A stretch of 30,697 nt of DNA, taken from a virus. The notes under the pieces are model-generated. The model did no database searches and was not told the origin of the DNA. It saw only the letters and a list, made by a program, of their open reading frames with translations. Location: UHGV virus genome UHGV-1292713. One strand, given 5' to 3'. Below are positions 3,081-30,697 of this stretch, in pieces; within the stretch, counting starts at the first letter, position 1, and every line of letters begins with the position of its first letter. The translations under genes were made by a program, and so were the position numbers.

Positions 3081-3185
3081 CTTGGACTCATCAACGGTAG
3101 ACATACAAAGCCCATCGTTGGGAAAATCTTATCCATATTTTTTGAGAAATGCAAGCATCATGTCGCCATCTTCGGTGAAAATCAC

Positions 3186-3938
3186 TTATCTCGTCACCTT
3201 TCTCAATTGTGCTTCAGCGAATGCTTCTTCCTGCCAGCACTTTGTTACCAGTTTATCAATGACGTCTGCATATCCTTTGTACCACTGATAATCAGTCAGG
3301 TCTGGTACCAGCTTCTGGACATGACGTCGTGCCAGTGTGGTCGGTAAACGACTAAACCGGTTTCCATTGCAACGCCCACAAATCTTATAAACAGGCGCGC
3401 CATGAAGCCGGGTTCTTTTTTCATCCAGGACAATGCCTTTACCCTTACACCCTCTGCAAGCCGTGCTGACTTCTCCCTTACCATGGCAATGCTGACATAA
3501 TTCCTTCACCCACTCTTCCTTGATAACAGATTCCCCGCTTCTGGAGTGTTTCACCACTTCGCGCAATACACTATGAAATCCAGTACCAGCACAATGCTCA
3601 CAGCGAGCCTTACTTGCCGCAGACCTGGAATAATCAGCAAAGGCAAAACTCACAAGGTAAGGGATGATCTGTAACCGGGTTTCTTCACTCAATTTGTTCA
3701 ATGTCGGGTTATCCATTGCCATCGCGTAATTGAGCAGACCTTCAATCGCAAACTGAGGATCCTGAACACCAACTTTTGCCAGGAATAAGGCAAACCCAAG
3801 CGGTGCTTTCGACTGCACCATCCCCTGCGCAGCCATCACATCCGTAATCGTTAAACCACCTGAGCCTGTCGCCGGTGCGTCATCGCTCAATTTTGGAGAT
3901 TTTGGGGAGTAATATTTTGGTAAGGCTTCAAGGTTCAT
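3186..3938 (-). CDS. Late-gene antitermination protein Q (long, phage-82-like type)
   Basis: 250-aa ORF with clustered Cys/His zinc-binding motifs (CEHCAGTG, CQHCHGKG, CRGCKGKG, CGRCNG); sits between nin-region genes and a terminator-bracketed late cargo gene. Confidence 0.75.
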   Translation of the reverse strand: MNLEALPKYYSPKSPKLSDDAPATGSGGLTITDVMAAQGMVQSKAPLGFALFLAKVGVQDPQFAIEGLLNYAMAMDNPTLNKLSEETRLQIIPYLVSFAFADYSRSAASKARCEHCAGTGFHSVLREVVKHSRSGESVIKEEWVKELCQHCHGKGEVSTACRGCKGKGIVLDEKRTRLHGAPVYKICGRCNGNRFSRLPTTLARRHVQKLVPDLTDYQWYKGYADVIDKLVTKCWQEEAFAEAQLRKVTR

Positions 3939-11222: not shown

Positions 11223-11534
11223 TGCTGCCGTTAATTCAGCGATCACATTGAATACTCTTATTGTTGTTGGGGATATCCAGATTAACCGAATCCTTGTTGT
11301 TGGGGAATAACCAGGTCCACCTCGCCTGATGTGGCTAAAAGCAGGCACATAACAGCTAAGTATTTTCAACCAGAGAGAATCCTTAGCGTTGTGGTGAATG
11401 CGGCTCAGCGCACGCGGGTTAAGGTTGAGGCTGACAGTCGACCTTCTGTGGATACCCACCCGCCTGGTGTGCAACCTTCGCCAGGCACCGGGAGGCACCC
11501 GGCACCACAAGTTTATGCTGTGTGTAGTCCTGGC

Positions 11535-11580
11535 GGTACCAGTTTGTACCCTTGCTTCCGGCTGGTACCGTCCTTTTTTG
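11535..11580 (+). terminator. Terminator-like hairpin in the early-left leader
   Basis: 8-bp stem ggtaccag / ctggtacc (11535-11542, 11562-11569) with 19-nt loop, followed by gtcc + T6 (11574-11579). Confidence 0.4.
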
Positions 11581-11716
11581 CAAAACAGAGAAGAGCATCA
11601 CCGGACGACGGGCTCATAACCCAATCCATCCGGGCGGCTGCCACCGCAGGTGTTCTTCTCTGTTTTGTGGAGAAACCAACCGACCTTGCAGGGTCGATAT
11701 GATGAGGAGCAGCAAA

Positions 11717-13986: not shown

Positions 13987-14291
13987 TGACCACATTTACC
14001 AATAAAGAACTGATTAAAGAAATCAAAGAACGAATCAGCAGCCTAGAGGTTCGAGACGATATTGAGCGCCGTGCTTATGAAATCGCACTCGTATCTCTGG
14101 AAGTAGAGCCAGATGAACGCGAAGCCTATGAATTATTCATGGAAAAGCGTTTCGGTGACTTAGTAGATCGTCGGAGAGCAAAAAACGGCGATAACGAATA
14201 CATGGCATGGGATATGACTCTCGGTTGGATCGTCTGGCAGCAACGAGCTGGTATCCATTTTTCAACAATGTCACAGCAAGAGGTGAAATAA
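13986..14291 (+). CDS. Hypothetical protein (YfdT-like)
   Basis: 101-aa ORF; TAATG overlap with the upstream gene. Confidence 0.55.
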   Translation: MTTFTNKELIKEIKERISSLEVRDDIERRAYEIALVSLEVEPDEREAYELFMEKRFGDLVDRRRAKNGDNEYMAWDMTLGWIVWQQRAGIHFSTMSQQEVK

Positions 14292-14662
14292 TGGAGCCAT
14301 ACAGCCTCACACTCGATGAGGCCTGTCATTTTCTCAAAATATCCAGACCGACTGCCATTAACTGGATACGCACAGGCCGCCTACAGGCAACACGTAAAGA
14401 TCCAACCAAGCAAAAATCTCCTTACCTCACAACACGGCAAGCTTGCATTGCGGCGCTTCAGTCTCCGCTGCATACTGTCCAGGTGAGCGCGGGTGATGGC
14501 ATAACAGAGGAAAGAAAATGTCACTCTTCCGCAGAAATGAAATATGGTATGCCTCGTATTCGCTCCCGGGCGGGAAACGAATTAAGGAATCTCTTGGCAC
14601 AAAGGACAAGCGGCAAGCTCAGGAGTTGCACGACAAGCGAAAAGCAGAACTCTGGCGAGTAG
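14291..14662 (+). CDS. Excisionase-like (AlpA/Xis family HTH); 3' extent uncertain
   Basis: Start at ATG 14291 ([31 protein letters not shown]...), overlapping the upstream stop. The frame stays open to 14662, overlapping the integrase start at 14518; the functional product may be shorter. Confidence 0.45.
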
Positions 14663-15681
14663 AAAAGCTAGGGGATTTACCTGATGTCACTTTTGAAGAG
14701 GCCTGCCTAAGATGGCTTGAGGAAAAAGCTGATAAAAAATCTCTCGATTCAGATAAAAGCCGGATTGAGTTCTGGCTTGAACATTTTGAGGGTATAAGGC
14801 TTAAAGATATCTCGGAGGCAAAGATTTACTCTGCTGTAAGCAGAATGCATAACAGAAAGACGAAAGAAATATGGAAACAGAAAGTTCAGGCCGCCATCAG
14901 GAAAGGTAAAGAACCGCCTGTTTATGAACCAAAGCCAGTATCAACTCAGACAAAGGCAAAGCATCTTGCCATGATAAAGGCCATTCTCCGTGCTGCAGAA
15001 CGCGACTGGAAGTGGCTGGAAAAAGCGCCTGTCATCAAGATACCAGCGGTCAGAAACAAGCGAGTCAGATGGCTGGAAAAGGAGGAAGCAAAACGCCTTA
15101 TTGATGAGTGCCCCGAACCACTGAAATCTGTCGTCAAGTTTGCGCTGGCAACTGGTCTGAGAAAGTCGAACATCATAAATCTGGAATGGCAACAAATCGA
15201 CATGCAGCGACGAGTTGCCTGGGTGAATCCAGAAGAGAGCAAATCAAACCGCGCCATTGGTGTGGCGCTGAACGATACCGCCTGTAAAGTGTTGCGTGAT
15301 CAAATAGGCAAGCATCACAAATGGGTGTTTGTACATACCAAGGCGGCTAAGCGAGCAGATGGAACATCAACGCCTGCGGTCAGGAAGATGCGCATCGACA
15401 GCAAGACATCATGGCTATCAGCTTGTCGTCGTGCAGGAATTGAAGATTTCCGTTTCCATGACCTCAGACACACCTGGGCAAGCTGGCTGATCCAGTCAGG
15501 CGTCCCATTATCTGTGCTTCAGGAAATGGGCGGATGGGAGTCCATAGAAATGGTTCGTAGGTATGCTCACCTTGCGCCTAATCATTTGACAGAGCATGCA
15601 AGGAAAATAGACGACATTTTTGGTGATAATGTCCCAAATATGTCCCACTGTGGAATTATGGAGGATATAAAGAAGGCGTAA
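14518..15681 (+). CDS. int: Tyrosine site-specific integrase (DLP12 IntD-like, tRNA-Arg-targeting)
   Basis: 387-aa ORF with the C-terminal catalytic signature ([10 protein letters not shown]...VRRYAHL); immediately followed by a tRNA-Arg 3' fragment. Confidence 0.9.
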
Positions 15682-15696
15682 CTGATTGAATTGTAA

Positions 15697-15741
15697 TGGC
15701 GCGCCCTGCAGGATTCGAACCTGCGGCCCACGACTTAGAAG
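15697..15741 (-). other. Attachment-site core: 3' 45 nt of tRNA-Arg(UCU) (argU-like), partial tRNA
   Basis: Reverse complement reads cttctaagtcgtgggccgcaggttcgaatcctgcagggcgcgcca, i.e. anticodon loop with TCT, T-arm GCAGG-TTCGAAT-CCTGC, acceptor 3' strand and CCA. The 5' half of the tRNA is absent; the sequence diverges after the anticodon loop. Confidence 0.75.
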
Positions 15742-16163
15742 TTCCTAGAACGACATTTTAAGTCAACAAATTACCGCGCCATCTCTGCGCTCACACGTCC
15801 CACTACCTCAAAACATGTAAAGCCTTGCAAGCCATTGTGAGGCCTTATGTGTCTCAGTTTTGTCCCTCTTTTTTGTACTAAAAAACATAGCAATTGAGGA
15901 TAAACCTCATGCTATTTTCGCTTATATGCCTTTAAAGGCATGGCGCTTAAATAGATAAAAACACCACAAAAGCATAAAAAACCACACAGTAAAACCGCAA
16001 CATAAAACAATAACAGATAATTAAACCAAAAACAGATAGCGCATTGTGATAATCATTCAATACTAAACAAAATATAAACAGTGGAGCAATATGTGATTGA
16101 CTCATTAAGTTAGATATAAAAAATACATATTCAATCATTAAAACGATTGAATGGAGAACTTTT

Positions 16164-17117
16164 ATGCGGGCGAAACTTCTGGGAATAGTTCTGACAACCC
16201 CTATTGCGATCAGCTCTTTTGCTTCTACCGAGACTATATCGTTTACTCCTGACAACATCAATGCGGACATTAGTCTTGGAACTCTGAGCGGAAAAACAAA
16301 AGAGCGCGTTTATCTAGCTGAAGAAGGAGGCCGAAAAGTCAGTCAACTCGACTGGAAATTCAATAACGCTGCAATTATTAAAGGTGCAATTAATTGGGAT
16401 TTGATGCCCCAGATATCTATTGGGGCTGCGGGCTGGACTACTCTCGGCAGCCGAGGTGGCAATATGGTCGATCAGGACTGGATGGATTCCAGTAACCCCG
16501 GAACCTGGACAGATGAAAGTAGGCACCCTGATACACAACTCAATTATGCCAACGAATTTGATCTGAATATCAAAGGCTGGCTCCTCAACGAACCCAATTA
16601 CCGCCTGGGACTCATGGCCGGATATCAGGAAAGCCGTTATAGCTTTACAGCCAGAGGTGGTTCCTATATCTACAGTTCTGAGGAGGGATTCAGAGATGAT
16701 ATCGGCTCCTTCCCGAATGGAGAAAGAGCAATCGGCTACAAACAACGTTTTAAAATGCCCTACATTGGCTTGACTGGAAGTTATCGTTATGAAGATTTTG
16801 AGCTAGGTGGCACATTTAAATACAGCGGCTGGGTGGAAGCATCTGATAACGATGAGCACTATGACCCAGGAAAAAGAATCACTTATCGCAGTAAAGTCAA
16901 AGACCAAAATTACTATTCTGTTGCAGTCAATGCAGGTTATTACGTAACACCTAACGCAAAGGTTTATGTTGAAGGCGCATGGAATCGGGTTACGAATAAA
17001 AAAGGTAATACTTCACTTTATGATCACAATGATAACACTTCAGACTACAGCAAAAATGGTGCAGGCATAGAAAACTATAACTTCATCACTACTGCTGGTC
17101 TTAAGTACACCTTTTAA
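16164..17117 (+). CDS. ompT: Outer membrane protease OmpT (omptin family)
   Basis: 317-aa ORF with signal peptide; sequence matches my recollection of E. coli OmpT essentially throughout. Confidence 0.9.
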   Translation: MRAKLLGIVLTTPIAISSFASTETISFTPDNINADISLGTLSGKTKERVYLAEEGGRKVSQLDWKFNNAAIIKGAINWDLMPQISIGAAGWTTLGSRGGNMVDQDWMDSSNPGTWTDESRHPDTQLNYANEFDLNIKGWLLNEPNYRLGLMAGYQESRYSFTARGGSYIYSSEEGFRDDIGSFPNGERAIGYKQRFKMPYIGLTGSYRYEDFELGGTFKYSGWVEASDNDEHYDPGKRITYRSKVKDQNYYSVAVNAGYYVTPNAKVYVEGAWNRVTNKKGNTSLYDHNDNTSDYSKNGAGIENYNFITTAGLKYTF

Positions 17118-17303
17118 CGAAGTTAACCAGATTTTCTCCCCGGTGGTATTGTATAACCCCGGGGAATTTGTTTACAGTTACAAGTAGGCAATATCCACTA
17201 ATTTTGTAAGCATTTAACCTATGTCATAACGTGTAATCTCTTACCGCAACACAAGACCTCAATATATTCAAATCTTATCTTTATTCCGATATTCAGAGAC
17301 ACA

Positions 17304-18788
17304 ATGCGAAAAATAATTACTCATTTCAAAGTTGTTTTAACGTTACTTCTACCAGTAACCGTATCTGCCCAGCAGATACAGTGGCAATCCTGTATGGCCA
17401 GTCAATTCAACCACTGGTTTGGTGAGGAAAAACCGTCTCCTGACTTACTATGTGGTTATTTGTCTGTTCCATTAAAATATACAGACACAGGCGGAGATGC
17501 TTCTTATGAAAAAAAATCACAAGTCAAACTAGCGTTGACAAAATTGCCGGCAAAAAGCAAGCATAAAGGAAGTATCCTGATAATAAGTGGTGGTCCCGGG
17601 TTACCAGGCATAAATCCTTATATTAACTTTGACTGGCCAGTCACAAATCTTCGTGAGTCATGGGATATTATTGGATTTGATCCTCGAGGCGTCGGACAGT
17701 CCACTCCGACAATAAACTGCCGGCAATCAGATACAGAGACTCAGGAAAACATAACCGAAAAGCAACAAGTATTAAATAAAATTAATGCCTGTATCCATAA
17801 TACCGGAGCCGAAGTCATTCGCCATATCGGCTCTAACGAGGCTGTATACGATATTGATCGTATTAGGCAAGCCTTGGGGGATAAACAACTGACAGCCGTG
17901 GCGTATTCGTATGGAACTCAAATTGCAGCCTTATATGCAGAACGTTTTCCCTACAACGTAAGATCTATCGTTCTTGATGGAGTCGTCGATATCGATGACC
18001 TGGAGGACAACTTCACATGGCAACTCAAACAGGCACAGAGTTATCAGGAAACGTTTGATCGCTTTGCATCCTGGTGTGCGCGTACAAAAAGTTGCCCGCT
18101 TTCTTCAGACAGAGATAAGGCAATAACTCAGTTCCATGAGCTATTATCAAAATTACATCACAAACCTTTATTAGACAGTAAGGGAGAAAATATATCTTCA
18201 GATGAACTCATATCATTAACAACAGACCTTCTGCTATGGCGTTCATCATGGCCAACCCTTGCAACTGCCATACGCCAGTTCTCTCAGGGGATTGTCAGTA
18301 ATGAAATTGAAACTGCGCTCAGTGCTCCGATAGCCTCAGAAGAGTCAAGCGATGCTTCGGGGGTAATCCTCTGTGTAGATCAGGGGGATGAGCAATTAAC
18401 ACCAGAAGAGCGAAAATCCCGAAAAGACGCTCTTGCGAATGCCTTCCCGGCTATTAACTTTGACAATGGACGTTCCGATTCACCTGATTTTTGTGAATTA
18501 TGGCCAATACATAGCGACCTGAACAAAACTCGCCTGAAAAATACTGTTCTGCCCTCTGGTTTACTGTTTGTAGCACACAAATACGACCCAACAACGCCCT
18601 GGATTAATGCCCGTAAGATGGCAGAGAAATTTTCCAGCCCGTTACTAACAATAAATGGTGATGGGCATACATTAGCTCTCACCGGAGTTAATTTATGTGT
18701 AGATAAAGCAGTTGTACATCACCTGATCACTCCACAAAAAATAGAAAATATATACTGCCCAGGAAATTCTGAAGCAGAAATACAATAA
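17304..18788 (+). CDS. Secreted alpha/beta-fold hydrolase (S33/TAP-like peptidase family)
   Basis: 494-aa ORF with N-terminal signal peptide (…LLLPVTVSAQQ); nucleophile elbow Y-S-Y-G-T; family call is approximate. Confidence 0.6.
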   Translation: MRKIITHFKVVLTLLLPVTVSAQQIQWQSCMASQFNHWFGEEKPSPDLLCGYLSVPLKYTDTGGDASYEKKSQVKLALTKLPAKSKHKGSILIISGGPGLPGINPYINFDWPVTNLRESWDIIGFDPRGVGQSTPTINCRQSDTETQENITEKQQVLNKINACIHNTGAEVIRHIGSNEAVYDIDRIRQALGDKQLTAVAYSYGTQIAALYAERFPYNVRSIVLDGVVDIDDLEDNFTWQLKQAQSYQETFDRFASWCARTKSCPLSSDRDKAITQFHELLSKLHHKPLLDSKGENISSDELISLTTDLLLWRSSWPTLATAIRQFSQGIVSNEIETALSAPIASEESSDASGVILCVDQGDEQLTPEERKSRKDALANAFPAINFDNGRSDSPDFCELWPIHSDLNKTRLKNTVLPSGLLFVAHKYDPTTPWINARKMAEKFSSPLLTINGDGHTLALTGVNLCVDKAVVHHLITPQKIENIYCPGNSEAEIQ

Positions 18789-18809
18789 TTTCAAAATATT
18801 CCGCTATTT

Positions 18810-18858
18810 GCTCCCAATGCAAAACATATATTGCATTGGGAGCATATTCATATTTTTG
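18810..18858 (+). terminator. Rho-independent terminator after the hydrolase gene
   Basis: Perfect 12-bp stem gctcccaatgca / tgcattgggagc (18810-18821, 18832-18843) followed by a T-rich tract. Confidence 0.55.
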
Positions 18859-18971
18859 TTATTATTGTATGAAATCGTCTCATGTACACGGTCCTTTTTT
18901 CGCCGAAAACTGATATTACTTTAATCAAAAGTTGACGTGCCAGATTCGAAGTAAATTTATAAAATATCAAA

Positions 18972-19277
18972 TCAATATACATTTTGCACCTTCGAGATAG
19001 TAATGACTGTTACTGTAACATGAGTTACAAACAGCTTCATACCCAGAGCTACTGATGTATCAACTCGATTCAACAATACCCGATATTTATTCCATGCCTC
19101 CAGCAACGATCTTTCTTCCTCCGTTGCGATTTCCAGATCTACAGCATCCTGCAGTGGCGCAATATACTCACTGAATTCCTGGATGTAGAACTGTGTAGTG
19201 ACGGTCTTCCAGCCATTCGGCTCCTGCTGTATCGAAGCATACCAGGCTATTTCAATATCGCTATGCTGCGGCAGCAT
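18972..19277 (-). pseudogene. Tail fibre assembly protein remnant (C-terminal fragment, tfaX-like)
   Basis: The 101-aa ORF shares the C-terminal segment [14 protein letters not shown]...[17 protein letters not shown] with the intact tfa at 21790..22365; lacks the N-terminal domain. Confidence 0.65.
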
Positions 19278-19333
19278 TTAACCCCTTGTAATTCATCGCC
19301 ATAATTGATTTAATTCACAAATAAAACTATAAC

Positions 19334-20002
19334 ATGGTGAAATTAATGAAAAAAAACACAGATGATGGGGCTAAAATTTACACACCACTTACCCTAAAGC
19401 TTTATGACTGGTGGGTTTTGGGAGTATCAAATCGGCTTGCATGGGGATGTCCTACAAAGGAACACCTTCTTCCACACTTTCTGGAACATTTAGGTAACAA
19501 CCATCTGGATATTGGTGTTGGAACTGGGTTTTACCTTACTCACGTACCTGAGAGTAGTCTGATATCTTTAATGGATTTGAACGAAGCTAGCCTGAACGCG
19601 GCATCTACAAGGGCTGGGGAATCAAAAATTAAACATAAAATTAACCATGATGTTTTTGAACCTTATCCCGCGGCGTTACATGGTCAATTTGATTCCATTT
19701 CCATGTTTTACCTTCTTCACTGCCTGCCTGGAAATATATCTACAAAAAGCTGTGTAATACGCAATGCGGCGCAGGCCTTAACTGACGATGGAACTCTATA
19801 CGGAGCCACAATTCTTGGCGATGGAGTTGTGCACAATAGCTTCGGTCAAAAACTGATGCGCATTTACAATCAGAAAGGCATCTTTTCAAACACAAAAGAT
19901 TCCGAAGAAGGCTTAACACATATACTCTCAGAGCATTTCGAGAATGTTAAAACCAAGGTTCAAGGTACTGTAGTAATGTTTTCCGCTTCAGGGAAAAAAT
20001 AG
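19334..20002 (+). CDS. Class I SAM-dependent methyltransferase (YbcY-like by recollection)
   Basis: 222-aa ORF with motif I LDIGVGTGFY. Confidence 0.7.
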   Translation: MVKLMKKNTDDGAKIYTPLTLKLYDWWVLGVSNRLAWGCPTKEHLLPHFLEHLGNNHLDIGVGTGFYLTHVPESSLISLMDLNEASLNAASTRAGESKIKHKINHDVFEPYPAALHGQFDSISMFYLLHCLPGNISTKSCVIRNAAQALTDDGTLYGATILGDGVVHNSFGQKLMRIYNQKGIFSNTKDSEEGLTHILSEHFENVKTKVQGTVVMFSASGKK

Positions 20003-20007
20003 CATCC

Positions 20008-20048
20008 AACCGCAGCACGTTCTTGCATAAGGCGTGTCTGCGGTTTTT
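20008..20048 (+). terminator. Rho-independent terminator after the SAM-MTase gene
   Basis: accgcagcacg / cgtgtctgcggt hairpin (one bulge) followed by T5. Confidence 0.55.
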
Positions 20049-20549
20049 CAACTATTCAGATACATCACTCCCATCACATTCATTCCTCCGCATCATAGGC
20101 ATATAGACTATATCACCTTGATATTTTTCTTCTTCAGATAAAAACTGTTATCTATGTATACTTTTAAACCCAATCCGTGTAGAGTCTCTGCATAAGATAG
20201 TTTGCAGTTGCCACTTCAGCTTGCGCCATAAACCGCCTGATTTTTGCTGCCACCTGTTAGCATTCCTGTATACCTGAAACGACAATGTTTATCTACGAAC
20301 TTTAAGAACCCCCAGGATAAAAATTGTCAACTATATCATATATAACACATTACTAATTCGAGGCTATATGAACAGCATACTGATAATCACTTCGCTCCTT
20401 ATCATATTCAGCATTTTTAGTCATGCTCTAATAAAATTAGGGATTGGCATATCCAATAACCCAGACAAAACCGATGTATAAGTCAACATATACTGAATCA
20501 GACATACAATATCGCAATGAAAATCAATAATATTTTAAGGAATATCTTC

Positions 20550-20783
20550 ATGAAATCAAAAGACACCCTAAAGTGGTTCCCTGCGCAGCTTCCTGAAGTA
20601 AGAATTATCCTAGGGGATGCTGTAATGGAAGTAGCAAAACAGGGAAGACCTATCAATACCAGAACATTGCTTGATCACATTGAAGGAAACATAAAGAAAA
20701 AGTCATGGCTGGATAACAAAGAATTATTACAAACAGCGATATCAGTTCTTAAAGACAACAAAAATTTAAATGGTAAAATGTAA
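20550..20783 (+). CDS. Small hypothetical protein in AT-rich gene-poor segment
   Basis: Start assigned to ATG 20550 (MKSKDTLKW...) with AAGGA Shine-Dalgarno 8 nt upstream; 77 aa; no recognisable motif. Confidence 0.3.
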   Translation: MKSKDTLKWFPAQLPEVRIILGDAVMEVAKQGRPINTRTLLDHIEGNIKKKSWLDNKELLQTAISVLKDNKNLNGKM

Positions 20784-21101
20784 TATAATAAACTTACTTT
20801 TTTATCATTTTTCCACTTTAACAACATTTTGCTCCACTTTTCCACGACCAAACAACTTGAAATCTGGTTAAAATAACACGCAACACTATTCTTCTTCCTT
20901 GAGTCCGCCCGGAACTCGAAAAACAAACCGAGTTAAGGCCATTTTTCACAAAATCGATTTTGGATCTCACCAAAATTACGGGGTTGCATACGCATTCGTT
21001 TATTTTCGAACGTGTACATACAAATATGTACAAAAATAATCAAAATTATTTTCTGAGATGCATTATGATATGTACACCAATTTCGTATAGAAGATCTCAC
21101 T

Positions 21102-21692
21102 ATGTCTCGAATTTATGCTTACTGTCGGGTATCAACTCTGGAACAAACAACCAAAAATCAACGTCGGGAAATCGAAAGTGCAGGTTTTAACATCAAATCT
21201 CAGCAAATAATTGAAGAACAAATTAGCGGCTCAGCAGCAACCAGTGAGCGTCCTGGTTTTAACCAGTTGCTTGATCGACTGAAAAGAGGTGATGCATTGA
21301 TTGTCACAAAACTGGATCGCCTCGGTTGTAATCCAATGGATATCAGTAAAACGGTGGAACAACTGACCAAAGCAGGTATCAAAGTGCATTGCTTAGCATT
21401 GGGGGGCGTTGACCTGACCAGTCCACCTGGAAAAATGATGATGCAAGTAATTTCAGCAGTCGCTGAATTTGAGCGAGACCTTTTACTTGAGCGTACTCAT
21501 TCAGGGATATTAAGAGCACGGGGCGCAGGAAAGCGATTTGGTCGCCCACCTGTGTTAAATGATGAACAAATACAGAGGGTACTAGAGCAAATTAAGTCAG
21601 GTATAAATATAAGTGACATTGCCCAAGAATTCAAAACCTCGCGGCAAACCATTTTAAGAGCTAAAGCAAAAAATCAGACACCTGATATATAA
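21102..21692 (+). CDS. Serine recombinase (resolvase/invertase family, Pin/Gin/Hin-like)
   Basis: 196-aa ORF; N-terminal catalytic region YCRVSTLEQ, resolvase core and C-terminal HTH; located beside the tail fibre / tfa genes. Confidence 0.85.
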
Positions 21693-21789
21693 AAATAATC
21701 TCGGTGTGAGATTCCTTACGTTTTCCAAGCCCCCCTTCCTAGCCTTAAATGGAAAGATACTTCTAATTATAGAATTTATATATCTTACC

Positions 21790-22365
21790 CTACGGTAGGG
21801 CTGGCCATTCAATATCCGGTGCAGTTGATGTATCAACACGATTCAGCAACACCCGATACTTTTTCCAGGCTTCCAGCAACAAGGTTTCTTTCTCCGTTGC
21901 GATCTCCAGATCCACAGCATCCTGAAGCGGCGCTATATGCTCACTGGCTACCTGCATCAGGCTGTTTTTTGTTTCTTCCGCCTCCCGGATCCGGAACAGT
22001 TTTTCTGCTTCCGTATCCTTCACCCAGGCTGTGCCGTTCCACTTCTGAAACTCCCCTTCCGGGGATAACCAGGTGACATTTTCCGGTAATGAGCCGAGTT
22101 CAGAAATAAATAACGCGTCGCCGGAAGCCACGTCATAAACCGTTTTACCCCGATGATCTTCAACGAGATGCCACGATGACTCATCACTGTTGAAAACAGC
22201 CACGAAACCAGCCGGAATATCTGGCGGTGCAATATCGGTACTGTTTGCTGGCAGACCTGTATGAGGCGGAATATATGCATCACCTTCACCAATAAATTCA
22301 TTAGTTCCGGACAGCAGATTATAAATTTTTATGGTCCGTGGTTGTTCACTCATTCTGAATGCCAT
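21790..22365 (-). CDS. tfa: Tail fibre assembly protein (Tfa)
   Basis: 191-aa ORF overlapping the stf stop (TAATG); conserved Tfa C-terminus. Confidence 0.8.
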
Positions 22366-25300
22366 TATGCAAGCCTCACAATATAGTTAAATGCGATGTT
22401 TTTGACGGTGTTTTCCGCGTTACCAGCAGCGTTAACGGTGATGGTGTGTCCATGTGAGCCAATCGCAACCGAGTGCGTATGAGCACCAATACCGACAGTA
22501 TGTGCGTGAGCACCTGCAGATGCAGCTGTGCCGCTGACACTATGAGTGTGCGCTCCTGCAGCACTTGTATTCACACTGGCCGCAGACACTACCTTATGTA
22601 CTGACCCATTTTGTGACCACTGGCTGACTGCTGATGCGCCTGTGACACTATGAGTATGGTTTCCGGCACTTGCGGCTGTACCGCTCACACTGTGCGTATG
22701 CGCCCCGATGTTATTCGTGGATTTAGTGCCGTAATCAAACGACGATGTGGTTTTCGTCCCCAAATCCGTACTGGATGCGCTGGCGCTGTGGGTGTGCGAT
22801 TTAATGCCGTCCTGTTCCTGAGACAATACAGCCCGACCACTGGCAGGTTTGCCCTTAATCGTCCAGCCACGCATATCAGGGATCACGCCTGACGGATAAG
22901 CGGCTGCAAGTTTCGGGTATGCAGATTTGTCAAAAGTCTGCCCCTGCATCAGGGCATAACCAGACGGAACGGTATCTGATGGCCACGGGATTGGTGCACC
23001 GACTGGATAAAACTCTGCAGGAGGATGAGCTGAGGTGTAAAGCTGCGCCCACGGCGACCAGTTTGCGTCGGTCGTATCCCGTCGTGAACGAATAAATGCC
23101 GGAGCATGAGCACCGCTTGTACCACTCCAGCCGATGAGTAACTCACCTTCGCCAACGGCTGTCATCCCTTTCAGGTGAATGATATTTCCATACACTGTTG
23201 GATATCCGTTGTTATACACCTCGTATAACTCAAGACCTGTTGCCCCCTGCGTATTGTCTGTCAGCGCGATTACCCGACCTTTTGAAGCCAGATTAACTGA
23301 TGATACTGCTGTTCCACCTGACGGTAACGCCCCGATCTCTGATGCCGTTGGCTTATTTCTGGAGTTATAGTCCCTTCGCCAGCCAGGTGAATAATCTGTT
23401 CCGTGATTAATATAGGTAAGCTGAGCGTTAGTTGTTCCACCACCAGTGGAGGTGGTCGGTGTGGTAATGCGGATCGTCATCGCTGACTTTATCCCCATTA
23501 CTTCAATGACAGCTCCGGCGAGATGAATATTACCGCAGCCAGTATCAGTAATGATTTTATTATTGCCATAAGACCAGGAACCCTTGCACATCCAGTATGG
23601 ATGGTTAAATGCTCCCTGAGAATCCAGCCACTCGATAAACTGTGCAGTCGTCCAGTCTCCTGTTGTTGTGCTTACTGACCCACAGAAGGCGCGGCAGGCA
23701 CCAATATTTTTCGTAAAGGTGTCTTTGCCAGGGATATCCGCACCGTTCTGATCTTTCTGCAGACGTTTCTCAGCATTGTCATTGGCTGCTTTTACTGCCT
23801 TTGGCGTTGCCGCCAGCGTTTCAGACGTGCTGTTGGTCGCGCTGCTGAGCTGAACTATCCCTTTCTGTGCTGTCGTTGCATCCTGTGCGGTGTATTTCCC
23901 GTTAGCCAGGTCATACGCGGCCTTAACTGCTTTTGGCGTTGCCGCCAGTGACTCGGAAGTGCTGTCGATCGCACTGCTGAGCTGTACTATCCCCTTTTTC
24001 GTCGTGCTCGCATCCTCAAGCGCCACGGCGGATGCAATATCCTCTGCCCGTTTTGCTGCTGTCTCAGCGCGCGTTGCCGCGGATTCTGCTGTACTTTTGC
24101 TCTGTGCTGCCGCCGTCGCACTGCCAGCTGCCTCTGTCGCCTTCGTGGATGCCGTCGTGGCGCTGCCCTTCGCTGCTGACGCCTGTCTGGTCGCCTCATC
24201 TTTTGAAGCAGACGCAGATGATGCCGATGACGCCGCCGAACTGGCTGACGATGCGGCTGCCGTTTTTGAGGATTCTGCACTGGTTTCCGACGCTTTCGCA
24301 TTCGTTTCGGATGTCTTCGCTGCGGATGCAGACCTCGCTGCTGCGCTGGCCTGTTCAGCGGCTTCGCCAGCCTTCGTTGTAGCTGTTGAAGCGGACGATG
24401 CAGCGCTTTCTGCCGATTTTCCGGCGGCAGTGGCACTGGCTGAGGCCTGCCCGGCACTTGTTGACGCTGCACTGGCAGACGACGCAGCCGCTGTTTTTGA
24501 GCCTGCTGCTGCGGAGGCACTCTGTTCCGCTGCCGTTTCAGAAGCCTTGGCGTTCGTCTCGGACGTTTTTGCCGCCTTCGCGGAATTTCCTGCCGCCGTA
24601 GCCGAGGAAGCTGCGCTGCTGGCGCTCGAGGCTGCGTTCGTTTCTGATGATTTTGCCGCCTCTTTTGAAGCCGACGCATCCCGTGCTGAAGTGGCTGCTT
24701 CTGACGCTTTCGTGGTCGCGGTGGATGCAGAAGTGGCTGCTGATTGTTGTGACGCTGCCGCATTCGTTTCTGACGTTTTTGCCGTAGCGGCACTGGTGGC
24801 CGCCGCGCTTTTTGAGGACTCTGCAGCGGCAGCACTTTTTGATGCTTCAGTGGCCTTTGCTGATGCCGTTCCTGCGCTGGAAGACGCTGACTGAGCCGAC
24901 GAAGCGGCCTGTCCGGCTGACGTGCTGGCTGCGCGTGCTGAGCCTGCAGCATCAGTCGCATGGGTTGCCGCCTCACGGGCTGATGTGCTGGCATCGCTGG
25001 CTGACTTCTTCGCGGCTGCTGTGTTCTGTGCCACCGCGGACGCGTTACGCGCCACCTCTTCCACCATCAGTTCAAAACGTCTCAGTGCCTCCGGACGGGC
25101 ATCATCCTCCGTCATGGCACCGAGAAAATCATTCAGCGTACCGGGTTGAGAATCTTCATACACGGTGATGGTCCCGGCATGTGACGGCGGGAATCCCTCC
25201 ACCAACAGAATAACGCTGTACTGACCGTACTCAACGTCCATACTGTAACGCCCGGCTTCATCCGGATTTTCTGAGGCCAGCGTGTTCACCACCACCGTGT

Positions 25301-25391
25301 TGCTGTTACGTTTTGCTTTCAGCTGGATTGTGCAGTTCTGTACCGGTTTTCCTGTGCCGTCTTTCAGTACACCTGAAATCTTTACTGCCAT
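22365..25391 (-). CDS. stf: Side tail fibre protein (lambda Stf-like), with Ala/Ser-rich repeat region and C-terminal HTHS repeats
   Basis: Start assigned to ATG 25391 ([12 protein letters not shown]..., as in lambda Stf as I recall it); the ORF track begins 2 codons upstream at a GTG. Long Ala/Ser/Thr-rich low-complexity core and GAHTHSVSG repeats near the C-terminus. Confidence 0.85.
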
Positions 25392-25402
25392 ATTCACCCC
25401 AC

Positions 25403-25428
25403 AAAAAAGCCCGCCTGAACCGGCGGGC
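25403..25428 (-). terminator. Rho-independent terminator between lom and stf
   Basis: gcccgcc-ggttca-ggcgggc hairpin on the minus strand followed by T6 (plus-strand A-run 25403-25408). Confidence 0.6.
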
Positions 25429-25455
25429 TGTCATAACACTGTGTTACCTGGCTAA

Positions 25456-26055
25456 TCAGAATTTATAACCGACACCCACGATGAAACCGTCAGTGCGCCA
25501 GTCACCACTGCCTGAGCCTTCATAAGCAATATCAATGGCCACGGATTCGGTCGGGTTAAACTGCACGCCAGCCCCCCACGCCAGAGACGTGTTGCTGTGG
25601 CGACCGTCATCACTTCCGGTCAGCACATCGTGCTTTTTCCCCTTGTTGTCAGTTACGCGGATATAATCTCCGGAGAAAGTCGAAACACGGCTGTAAGCCA
25701 CACCCGCCATCGCATACGCGCTGAACCATTCATTCACGCGCACAGACGGCCCCGCCATCACGCTGAACCAGCGGTTACGCACGGAATCTTCATGCCAGCG
25801 GGTATCGCTGTAATGAGTCAGCTGGCGATTCTTGTCTTCTGCATAGCTGAATGACGTCACCATCCCCAGCGTGTCCGTAAACTCATAACGGTATTTCACG
25901 TTAATCCCGTTAAGATCATCACTGCCGGGAACGTTGGTCCGGGCATGAAGATACCCCGCGCTCAGCGTGGACTGATGTTCAGACGCCCATGCAGGCGCAC
26001 AGGATACGGCCAGACAAATGGCTGCGGACAAAATGGCGGCATAAAGTTTACGCAT
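25456..26055 (-). CDS. lom: Lom/Ail/PagC-family outer membrane beta-barrel protein
   Basis: 199-aa ORF with signal peptide; C-terminus AYEGSGSGDWRTDGFIVGVGYKF matches lambda Lom as I recall it; sits between J and stf as in lambda. Confidence 0.85.
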   Translation of the reverse strand: MRKLYAAILSAAICLAVSCAPAWASEHQSTLSAGYLHARTNVPGSDDLNGINVKYRYEFTDTLGMVTSFSYAEDKNRQLTHYSDTRWHEDSVRNRWFSVMAGPSVRVNEWFSAYAMAGVAYSRVSTFSGDYIRVTDNKGKKHDVLTGSDDGRHSNTSLAWGAGVQFNPTESVAIDIAYEGSGSGDWRTDGFIVGVGYKF

Positions 26056-26078
26056 AATTACCTCTCGCTTTTCTGCAA

Positions 26079-26103
26079 TAAAAAAGGCGTCATTTCTGAC
26101 GCC
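26079..26103 (-). terminator. Rho-independent terminator between J and lom
   Basis: ggcgtca-gaaa-tgacgcc hairpin on the minus strand followed by ttttttatt. Confidence 0.6.
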
Positions 26104-26121
26104 CGTTATGGGTTATAAAAT

Positions 26122-29523
<3,402 letters not shown>

Positions 29524-29580
29524 TCATGCTCCATAAACGATAAAACCGCCCGGAGGCGGTTTCACATAAAACATTTTGCA

Positions 29581-30252
29581 TCAGCGACCAATCACCACAA
29601 CCTGACCACCATCCCCTTCGTCTGCCGTGCTGATCTCCTGAGAAACCACGCGTGACCCCACGCGCATTTCACCGTACAGAACCGGCAGAACATTACCCTG
29701 GGCAACCATGTTATCCAGGGAGGAGAAATAGGTGTTCTGTTTGCCGTTATCCGTTGTCTGTGTACGGGGAGTTCTGGCTTTCGGTGCCAGCATCTGCGCC
29801 ACACCACCGAGCACCATACTGGCACCGAGAGAAAACAGGATGCCGGTCATACCACCGGCCCCAATGGCTGCCCCCCATGCTGCAAGGGTGGCTCCGGCGG
29901 TAAAGAATGATCCGGCAATGGCGGCAGCCCCCAGGACAATCTGGAATACGCCACCTGACTTGGCCCCGGCGACTCTGGGAACAATATGAATCACAGCGCC
30001 ATCAGGCAGAGTCTCATGTAACTGCGCCGTTAACCCGGACGTGCTGACGTCCCGCCCGGCAATCCGTACCTGATACCAGCCGTCGCTCAGTTTCTGACGA
30101 AACATCGGGAGCTGTGTGGCCAGTGCGCGGATGGCTTCAGCCCCCGTTTTCACACGAAGGTCGATGCGGCGGCCAAATCGTTGCAAATCCCCGTAAAGGC
30201 AGATGCGCGCCATGCCCGGTGACGCCAGAGGGAGTGTGTGCGTCGCTGCCAT
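29581..30252 (-). CDS. I: Tail assembly protein I
   Basis: 223-aa ORF, the same length as lambda I; glycine-rich hydrophobic C-terminal half; immediately upstream of J. Confidence 0.85.
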   Translation of the reverse strand: MAATHTLPLASPGMARICLYGDLQRFGRRIDLRVKTGAEAIRALATQLPMFRQKLSDGWYQVRIAGRDVSTSGLTAQLHETLPDGAVIHIVPRVAGAKSGGVFQIVLGAAAIAGSFFTAGATLAAWGAAIGAGGMTGILFSLGASMVLGGVAQMLAPKARTPRTQTTDNGKQNTYFSSLDNMVAQGNVLPVLYGEMRVGSRVVSQEISTADEGDGGQVVVIGR

Positions 30253-30697
30253 TTGTCGGTATACCTCTCTCGTTTGCTCAGTTGTTCAGGAATATGGTGC
30301 AGCAGCTCGCCATCACCACAGTAAATGGCGGCATGATTCGGCACCGATGAACCAAAACAGCACAGCAGCACATCGCCCGGTTGTGCTGATGACAACGGCA
30401 CCTGATACAGCCCTGTGGCCTCCAGATTATCCAGATAGAGATTCTGACCGTGACGCCACCAGTCATCCTCGCGATGAAAATCCGGCATCTCAATCCCCGC
30501 CAGATGATAAGCATCCCGGAACAGCGTGTAACAGTCCGTCACCCCGTGCTCAAAGCGCCGCCCGGTGAGAGTGCGTCGCTGCCATTTGTCGGTATACCTC
30601 TCTCGTTTGCTCAGTTGTTCAGGAATATGGTGCAGCAGCTCGCCATCACCACAGTAAATGGCGGCATGATTCGGCACCGATGAACCAAAACAGCACA
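30150..30697 (-). CDS. K: Tail assembly protein K (NlpC/P60-type), 5' end beyond the window, carrying an internal in-frame repeat
   Basis: Translation matches lambda K C-terminal region as I recall it (LTGRRFEHGVTDCYTLFRDAYHLAG...NHAAIYCGDGELLHHIP...); overlaps the start of I; the frame remains open to the window edge. Confidence 0.7.
   Translation of the reverse strand, partial: CCFGSSVPNHAAIYCGDGELLHHIPEQLSKRERYTDKWQRRTLTGRRFEHGVTDCYTLFRDAYHLAGIEMPDFHREDDWWRHGQNLYLDNLEATGLYQVPLSSAQPGDVLLCCFGSSVPNHAAIYCGDGELLHHIPEQLSKRERYTDKWQRRTHSLWRHRAWRASAFTGICNDLAAASTFV
30571..30697. repeat. 127-bp perfect direct repeat of 30238..30364 (I start / K C-terminal region), period 333 bp
   Basis: Identical strings gtgcgtcgctgccatttgtcggtatacctctctcgtttgctcagttgttcaggaatatggtgcagcagctcgccatcaccacagtaaatggcggcatgattcggcaccgatgaaccaaaacagcaca at both positions; the second copy runs to the window end. 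Confidence 0.85.

Follow-up and report, generated by a model that had tools for sequence, protein, structure and literature searches.

A partial tRNA-Arg gene beside the integrase gene as the putative attachment site of a DLP12-type, ompT-carrying lambdoid phage of Escherichia coli

In a stretch of 30,697 nucleotides of the virus genome UHGV-1292713 (the whole stretch analysed, hereafter the window), an integrase gene is followed within a few bases by what looks like the 3′ part of a tRNA-Arg gene, and phage-type DNA lies on both sides. This raises two questions, namely whether the tRNA fragment is the site at which the phage recombines with the bacterial chromosome, and in which form of the phage, free or integrated, such an arrangement would be found. 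From sequence comparison, we consider the site to be the attP of a DLP12-type, ompT-carrying lambdoid phage of E. coli. The features around it are the following, by window coordinates.

14291-14662, plus strand: xis (excisionase), 123 aa; Pfam HTH_17 match on the enclosing ORF and homology to Xis of phage L
14518-15681, plus strand: int, full-length tyrosine integrase of 387 aa; PF00589, E = 5.5e-47
15502-15507, plus strand: further GTCCCA copy, from the motif search
15631-15636 and 15642-15647, plus strand: two GTCCCA repeats at the 3′ end within int, which by conservation and enrichment are candidates for arm-type Int sites of the int-side arm
15695-15741, no strand assigned: common core of 47 bp, the same in attP, attB, attL and attR; four-way comparison, the three junctions of strain E28 and the breakpoints of 16 loci
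15697-15741, minus strand: 3′ 45 nt of argU, anticodon loop to CCA; 45/45 to nt 33-77 of K-12 argU
15735-15741, minus strand: heptamer CTTCTAA of the anticodon loop, where the core borders on the cargo side; the presumed strand-exchange (overlap) region
15742-15870, plus strand: cargo-side arm of attP, about 130 nt kept with phage L, BIS08P22 and SfIV despite a different tRNA core
15761-15773, 15797-15802 and 15862-15867, plus strand, in the cargo-side arm: motif matches to an IHF-like site, GTCCCA and GTCCCT, respectively

Read on the minus strand, positions 15697-15741 are CTTCTAAGTCGTGGGCCGCAGGTTCGAATCCTGCAGGGCGCGCCA, identical without any mismatch (45/45) to nt 33-77 of argU, the 77-nt gene for tRNA-Arg(UCU) of E. 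coli K-12. By cloverleaf count, its first base opens the anticodon loop (CTTCTAA) and its last bases are the 3′ CCA. It is present as a single copy in the window with up to three mismatches allowed (chance expectation 0), while the 32-nt 5′ half of argU was not found in the window even at three mismatches. The original prediction had described exactly this, only the 3′ 45 nt of an argU-like tRNA beside int and no 5′ half, and both points held. It had also taken these 45 nt as the att core. The length of the tRNA part proved exact, but the block common to the phage and the bacterial site is 47 bp long (15695-15741) and consists of the 45 tRNA bases and 2 bases past the CCA.

Two public records offer another reading, namely that the phage carries here a degraded or unusual tRNA gene instead of an attachment site. 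The record of phage Kati (PP925833.1) annotates a tRNA-Pro of 84 nt at 3108-3191, corresponding to window 15697-15780, and the record of phage Turner also lists a tRNA-Pro under the match. Moreover, 7 nt at 15775-15781 can pair with the 3′ end, and ARAGORN does call a tRNA-like fold, though only with its threshold lowered to 80 %. At default settings, ARAGORN called no tRNA in the whole window, and the Rfam tRNA model scored the fragment region at 19.7 bits against a gathering score of 29; by both programs, and by its missing 5′ half, the fragment is not a complete cloverleaf of the kind tRNA models recognise. The fold is no better than that of shuffled sequence (z = -1.4). The upstream flank has a homologue in phages that target thrW, where it is unable to pair with the tRNA 3′ end, and the breakpoints of integrated prophages described below mark the block as a recombination site. 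On the grounds of ARAGORN, Rfam, folding and the flank of the thrW phages we discarded the 84-nt stretch as a degenerate full tRNA. The tRNA-gene reading is extremely improbable, and the tRNA-Pro annotation in Kati and Turner is probably a false call.

The attachment-site reading makes a definite statement about integrated relatives, and the cryptic prophage DLP12 of K-12 allowed it to be followed base by base. Its attL consists of the 5′ half of argU, the core and an int-side flank (...attgaattgt, plus strand) that is identical to the window; its attR consists of a cargo-side flank (ttcctagaacgacattttaagtcaacaa...), which differs from the window at one base, then the core and the chromosome toward envY. 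The junction in the window is exactly the recombinant predicted from these two, attL x attR. The bacterial site is available from E. coli VE-T9, in which the locus is free of prophage (envY, argU, fimZ) and has exactly 47 bp in common with the window. In RefSeq, DLP12 starts at 564755, the same argU base as the start of the window fragment, and the K-12 prophage extends from within argU to just past ompT.

The same limits were obtained from the 16 integrated loci that we fetched. At the 13 attR-type loci, homology to the window starts at 15695, and at the three attL-type loci (K-12, E28 and one draft genome) it ends at the edge of the core; therefore, recombination must take place within 15695-15741, and the prophage boundaries for this phage family are fixed at these positions. 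The CCA end of the fragment faces int, and in attL of both K-12 and E28 an intact argU precedes the int-side flank known from the window. The reservation that the fragment might not be the target of the integrase thus found no support in the attL x attR recombinant, in the attB of VE-T9 or in the 16 breakpoints. The 47-bp core also agrees with the published likeness of the DLP12 attR to 47 bp of argU (PMC6379469).

Regarding the recombination genes, both are intact in the window. The stop codon of int is separated from the argU fragment by 15 nt, and the R...HxxR...Y motifs can be read in the translation. The integrase is 99.2 % identical to IntD of DLP12 and 72 % identical to the Int of phage L/P22, which is of equal length. 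The upstream xis overlaps the start of int by 145 nt, an overlap that is the same in phage L, and its product is 71.5 % identical over the full length to the annotated Xis of this P22-like phage. With an adjacent integrase, a block that would regenerate the tRNA 3′ end, a Campbell-type relation to attB, attL and attR, and xis upstream of int, the site looks like an argU-class lambdoid attP.

The homologue of xis in strain E28 (locus coordinates 19892-19957) was marked by PGAP as a truncated 66-nt 'helix-turn-helix' pseudogene, and xisD of K-12 is likewise listed as a pseudogene. The xis ORF homologous to the PGAP pseudogene is in fact full length. This entry and, probably, the 'tRNA-Pro' of Kati and Turner are annotation errors in public records.

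Sites of this type have been described before for DLP12, for epsilon34 and, in a thrW version, for P22/L. Phage L (Lederbergvirus, MW013502) resembles the window in having xis overlapping int, a 387-aa Int and a 15-nt spacer, followed by a 'tRNA-like fragment' on the opposite strand with a 'P22 attP site' inside it and cargo beyond. The arms of the two are homologous, the GTCCCA repeats included, whereas the core of phage L consists of 46 nt taken from thrW, not 45 nt from argU, its Int is 72 % identical and, in place of ompT, its cargo is the conversion genes gtrABC. For epsilon34, an argU segment of 43 bp was reported shortly after the end of int, together with an integrase closest to the one of DLP12, and the same interpretation was drawn (PMC2629481). 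Like the window, epsilon34 and BIS08P22, both of the P22 family, carry the argU 3′ segment directly downstream of int, and the att region of BIS08P22 aligns with the window across the core, which differs at 2 positions. Unlike the E. coli phage discussed here, these two have Salmonella hosts and podovirus virions, and the reported core is 43 bp.

We aligned the window with BIS08P22 (argU type), phage L and SfIV (both thrW type) over their att regions. On the int side, the block GTCCCAAAT(A/T)TGTCCCA is the same in all four phages save one base, while the adjacent codons diverge. The conserved stretches on the cargo side include CTGCGCTCACACGTCCCA and AAAGCCTTGCAAGCC. Across the four phages, the tRNA-derived core is thus swapped between argU and thrW types and both arms stay homologous. 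The plus strand of the whole 30.7-kb window contains 8 copies of the hexamer GTCCCA, 4 of which lie within 300 nt around att (15502-15802). This enrichment, together with the conservation, suggests that the repeats are arm-type Int sites. Matches to the IHF consensus with one mismatch each were found at 15761-15773 and 15691-15679. The integrase is likely to need IHF and likely to bind the GTCCCA repeats of both arms.

Two further elements were noticed near the core. A perfect 10-nt direct repeat, ACGACATTTT, flanks it at 15611-15620 (in the 3′ end of int) and 15750-15759; as an att site the repeat was rejected, having only a loose counterpart in a related attP (ACTCGATTTT / ACTACCTTTT in phage L). 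Two overlapping hairpins, each with a T-rich tail, are located at 15822-15856 on the plus strand, just past attP in the direction downstream of int. P22-like relatives have kept them, and at the homologous place phage L has an annotated terminator on the other strand. The hairpins adjoin int only in the attP arrangement, which by analogy recalls, and may resemble, the sib/tI retroregulation of lambda.

From these elements the following course of integration can be proposed. In the unintegrated phage, the gene order would be J, tail fibre, cargo with ompT, attP, int, xis and early genes. The tyrosine integrase would exchange strands between the 47-bp core of the phage and the identical stretch of chromosomal argU, and the phage map would be split at the core. 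As the comparisons show, the 5′ half of the chromosomal argU is then joined to the phage-borne 3′ part (attL), so that argU stays intact beside int, and the displaced original 3′ part is left beside ompT (attR). As in other members of the family, Int bound to arm sites would form an intasome with IHF, and Xis, encoded just upstream of int, would direct excision as the reverse reaction.

Concerning the position of the crossover, the block of identity begins exactly at the first base of the anticodon loop, and in phage L it begins one base before the loop of thrW. Integrases whose crossover falls in the anticodon loop typically show this pattern. If the 7-bp overlap is the anticodon loop, identity is expected to start exactly there and must extend to the end of the gene. 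We infer that the crossover most likely lies within the 7 bases of the anticodon loop, where the core borders on the cargo side. An attP in a tRNA gene is textbook biology and the site is already present in deposited phage genomes; it does illustrate neatly how Campbell-type integration into a tRNA gene proceeds and how the phage restores the gene that it splits.

The second question concerned the DNA on the far side of the core. The original prediction stated that it runs into cargo and tail genes rather than chromosome, and this is what the genes there show.

16164-17117, plus strand: ompT (omptin outer-membrane protease), first cargo gene beside attP; Pfam Omptin, E = 2.8e-130
17304-18788, plus strand: alpha/beta hydrolase, 494 aa (Pfam)
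18972-19277, minus strand: tail-fibre-assembly remnant (Pfam)
19334-20002, plus strand: SAM methyltransferase (Pfam)
21102-21692, plus strand: Pin-type invertase (Pfam)
21790-22365, minus strand: tfa, tail-fibre assembly (Pfam)
22365-25397, minus strand: side tail fibre, 1010 aa (Pfam)
25456-26055, minus strand: lom (Pfam)
26122-29520, minus strand: J (Pfam)

The position of ompT is matched beside attR in DLP12 of K-12 and beside attP in phage ev243, and the order of the cargo genes at 17304-20002 recurs in ev243, in E28 and in many E. coli prophages. A protease usually regarded as 'housekeeping' thus travels as phage cargo, and so do the hydrolase and the methyltransferase beside attP. The exact neighbourhood of J is found in E. 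coli prophages at 99.9 % identity over window 16121-30575. No protein identical to the side tail-fibre protein, taken as 1010 or as 1008 aa, was on record. The left part of the window is occupied by lambdoid early genes and extends to Q and a porin gene. No chromosomal gene was found within the window on either side of att; both of its ends lie inside phage DNA and reach neither cos nor chromosome.

In single prophages the arrangement is different. There ompT is followed by envY, ybcH and nfrA, as was the case at all ten places returned for the OmpT protein of the window, and int is followed by intact argU and fimZ. The exact OmpT protein was found in more than 26,000 blocks of an assembly collection, and in all places shown it is encoded beside attR. 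When the cI, ompT and J proteins were looked up, nothing but ordinary single prophages or unrelated mosaics came back. By contrast, the int-attP-ompT junction of the window is present in mid-record in the linear records of the phages ev243, 2G7b, Kati and Turner, at 98.9-99.6 % identity. The int-core-ompT junction was also recovered from one metagenome contig of 1.8 kb; a search of IMG/VR and of the GTDB representative genomes with the 73-nt junction gave no match. The tail end and the int end meeting across att is the arrangement expected of any unintegrated lambdoid genome.

The prediction had left three forms side by side, the attP form of the phage, a tandem lysogen and a wrapped circular assembly, and had set them against a single integrated prophage. 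The junction is indeed shared with the four phages and with one tandem lysogen, that of E28. We assign a probability of about 0.8 to the window being unintegrated phage DNA, a circular or wrapped assembly included, and a free or circular state of this DNA molecule is what we infer. Near-identical modules are present both in virion-derived phage genomes and in integrated prophages, which would agree with Int-dependent integration and Xis-dependent excision.

A junction of this kind might also be produced on paper, if attL and attR of a single prophage were falsely joined through the core that they share. The two sites do contain an exact repeat that an assembler could pass through. This repeat is only 47 bp long, which is shorter than the usual assembly k-mers, and the junction was found independently in the four phage genomes, in the metagenome contig and in E28. 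Because of the short repeat and the independent recurrence, an assembly artefact is highly improbable; such a false join would in any case still yield the true attP sequence.

In the tandem-lysogen reading, the window would come from a bacterial chromosome with a double or multiple lysogen and would be its middle junction, formed when a second copy enters the argU regenerated at attL of the first one. The tail end of one phage would then adjoin the int gene of the following one across an attP-like junction. One such array exists in strain E28 (NZ_CM143889.1, 3694451-3783981), where one phage of about 45 kb is present as a tandem double lysogen at argU, in the order envY, ompT ... int, att, ompT ... 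int, argU, fimZ. The two copies encode the same proteins under identical accessions and have the same frameshifted J and tail-assembly pseudogenes, and the array could be a genuine double lysogen or a duplication from long-read assembly. Its middle junction is 99.6 % identical to the window over 14400-17200 and has a full-length int, and the early region also resembles that of the window. Moreover, chromosomal prophages match the right arm of the window at 99.9 % identity.

To see how common this is, we searched 5426 complete E. coli genomes with a 261-nt query across the junction, with at least 80 % of the query covered. An attP-type junction is kept in 81 of them, which would speak for a chromosomal source, but E28 alone holds the junction together with a full-length int. 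This frequency, 1/5426, favours the phage form over the chromosome as the source of the window. Among the junction-spanning matches listed, int is cut at about codon 190 and, in the one examined, stands next to a tail-fibre-assembly remnant. In the window, on the other hand, int, xis and the arms are all complete, as they are in the four virion-derived phage genomes. The array of E28 is flanked by envY and by argU/fimZ, whereas the window is without any chromosomal sequence. Taken together, a tandem lysogen as the source of the window is unlikely, if clearly less so than an artefact or a tRNA gene. Equally unlikely is a chromosomal source in which an active DLP12-type phage with ompT forms an intact tandem polylysogen at argU, as in E28; if this were the case, the window would capture repeated integration into a tRNA gene that is regenerated by every copy.

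Besides E28, 80 of the 5426 complete genomes (about 1.5 %) carry an attP-type junction without a full-length int, and in the matches listed it is a fossil in which, besides the core and ompT, the 3′ ~60 % of int is left. In strain 2014C-3338 (NZ_CP027452.1, 5696-10017, homologous to window 15088-17200), the int stub abuts the tail-fibre-assembly remnant and a second ompT is located nearby. This junction seems to be what remains after phages had integrated at argU in succession and an internal deletion had occurred. It appears that repeated integration has left truncated int-att-ompT fossils in most of the ~80 genomes, with a duplicated ompT in at least one of them (2014C-3338).

Returning to the unintegrated phage as the preferred source, we compared the window with its closest known relatives. 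DLP12 is alike in its Int (99.2 %), in the 47-bp core and int-side flank, which are identical, and in ompT as the first gene inside attR. It differs in being integrated and heavily decayed, with an xisD pseudogene, IS elements and no head or tail genes, whereas the window has intact xis, int and tail genes and its ends are joined as attP. The phages ev243, 2G7b (genus Nesevirus), Kati and Turner have the block from int through attP and ompT to the hydrolase and the methyltransferase at 98.7-99.5 % identity, and differ from the window in the early/immunity region and in parts of the tail-fibre region. When 25 kb of the window were compared, coverage reached 61 % with the best phage record and 77 % with the best E. 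coli genome. The 61 % of the best phage record indicates that the window is another mosaic member of the group and none of these four phages. In ev243, the order is head, tail, J, lom, tail fibre, methyltransferase, hydrolase, ompT, att, int, early genes and lysis, which is the vegetative map of lambda. With the missing head, tail-shaft and lysis genes added to the 30.7 kb of the window, the genome would be about 46-48 kb long, like those of these phages. Among the papers searched there was no relevant mention of ev243, 2G7b or Nesevirus, and the paper on Nef/KingRac concerned ssrA and ttcA, not argU.

Some minor observations were made away from the att site. The layout of pin and the tail-fibre genes resembles that of pinR in the Rac prophage. 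A Pin-invertible tail-fibre segment was sought in 18800-25500, where we found no convincing inverted repeats and no alternative fibre cassette, the one candidate pair being of 21 nt at 81 %. Rfam gave a match to the sRNA STnc100 at 314-502 on the minus strand (114.5 bits), near the Q/porin end, and another one in the early region at 11366-11581 on the plus strand with 39 bits, which is below the gathering score. The Rfam family IS009 matched twice on the minus strand, at 21824-22022 in tfa (216 bits) and at 19051-19254 in the tfa remnant (109 bits). This 'sRNA' family appears to be modelled on the coding sequence of tfa.
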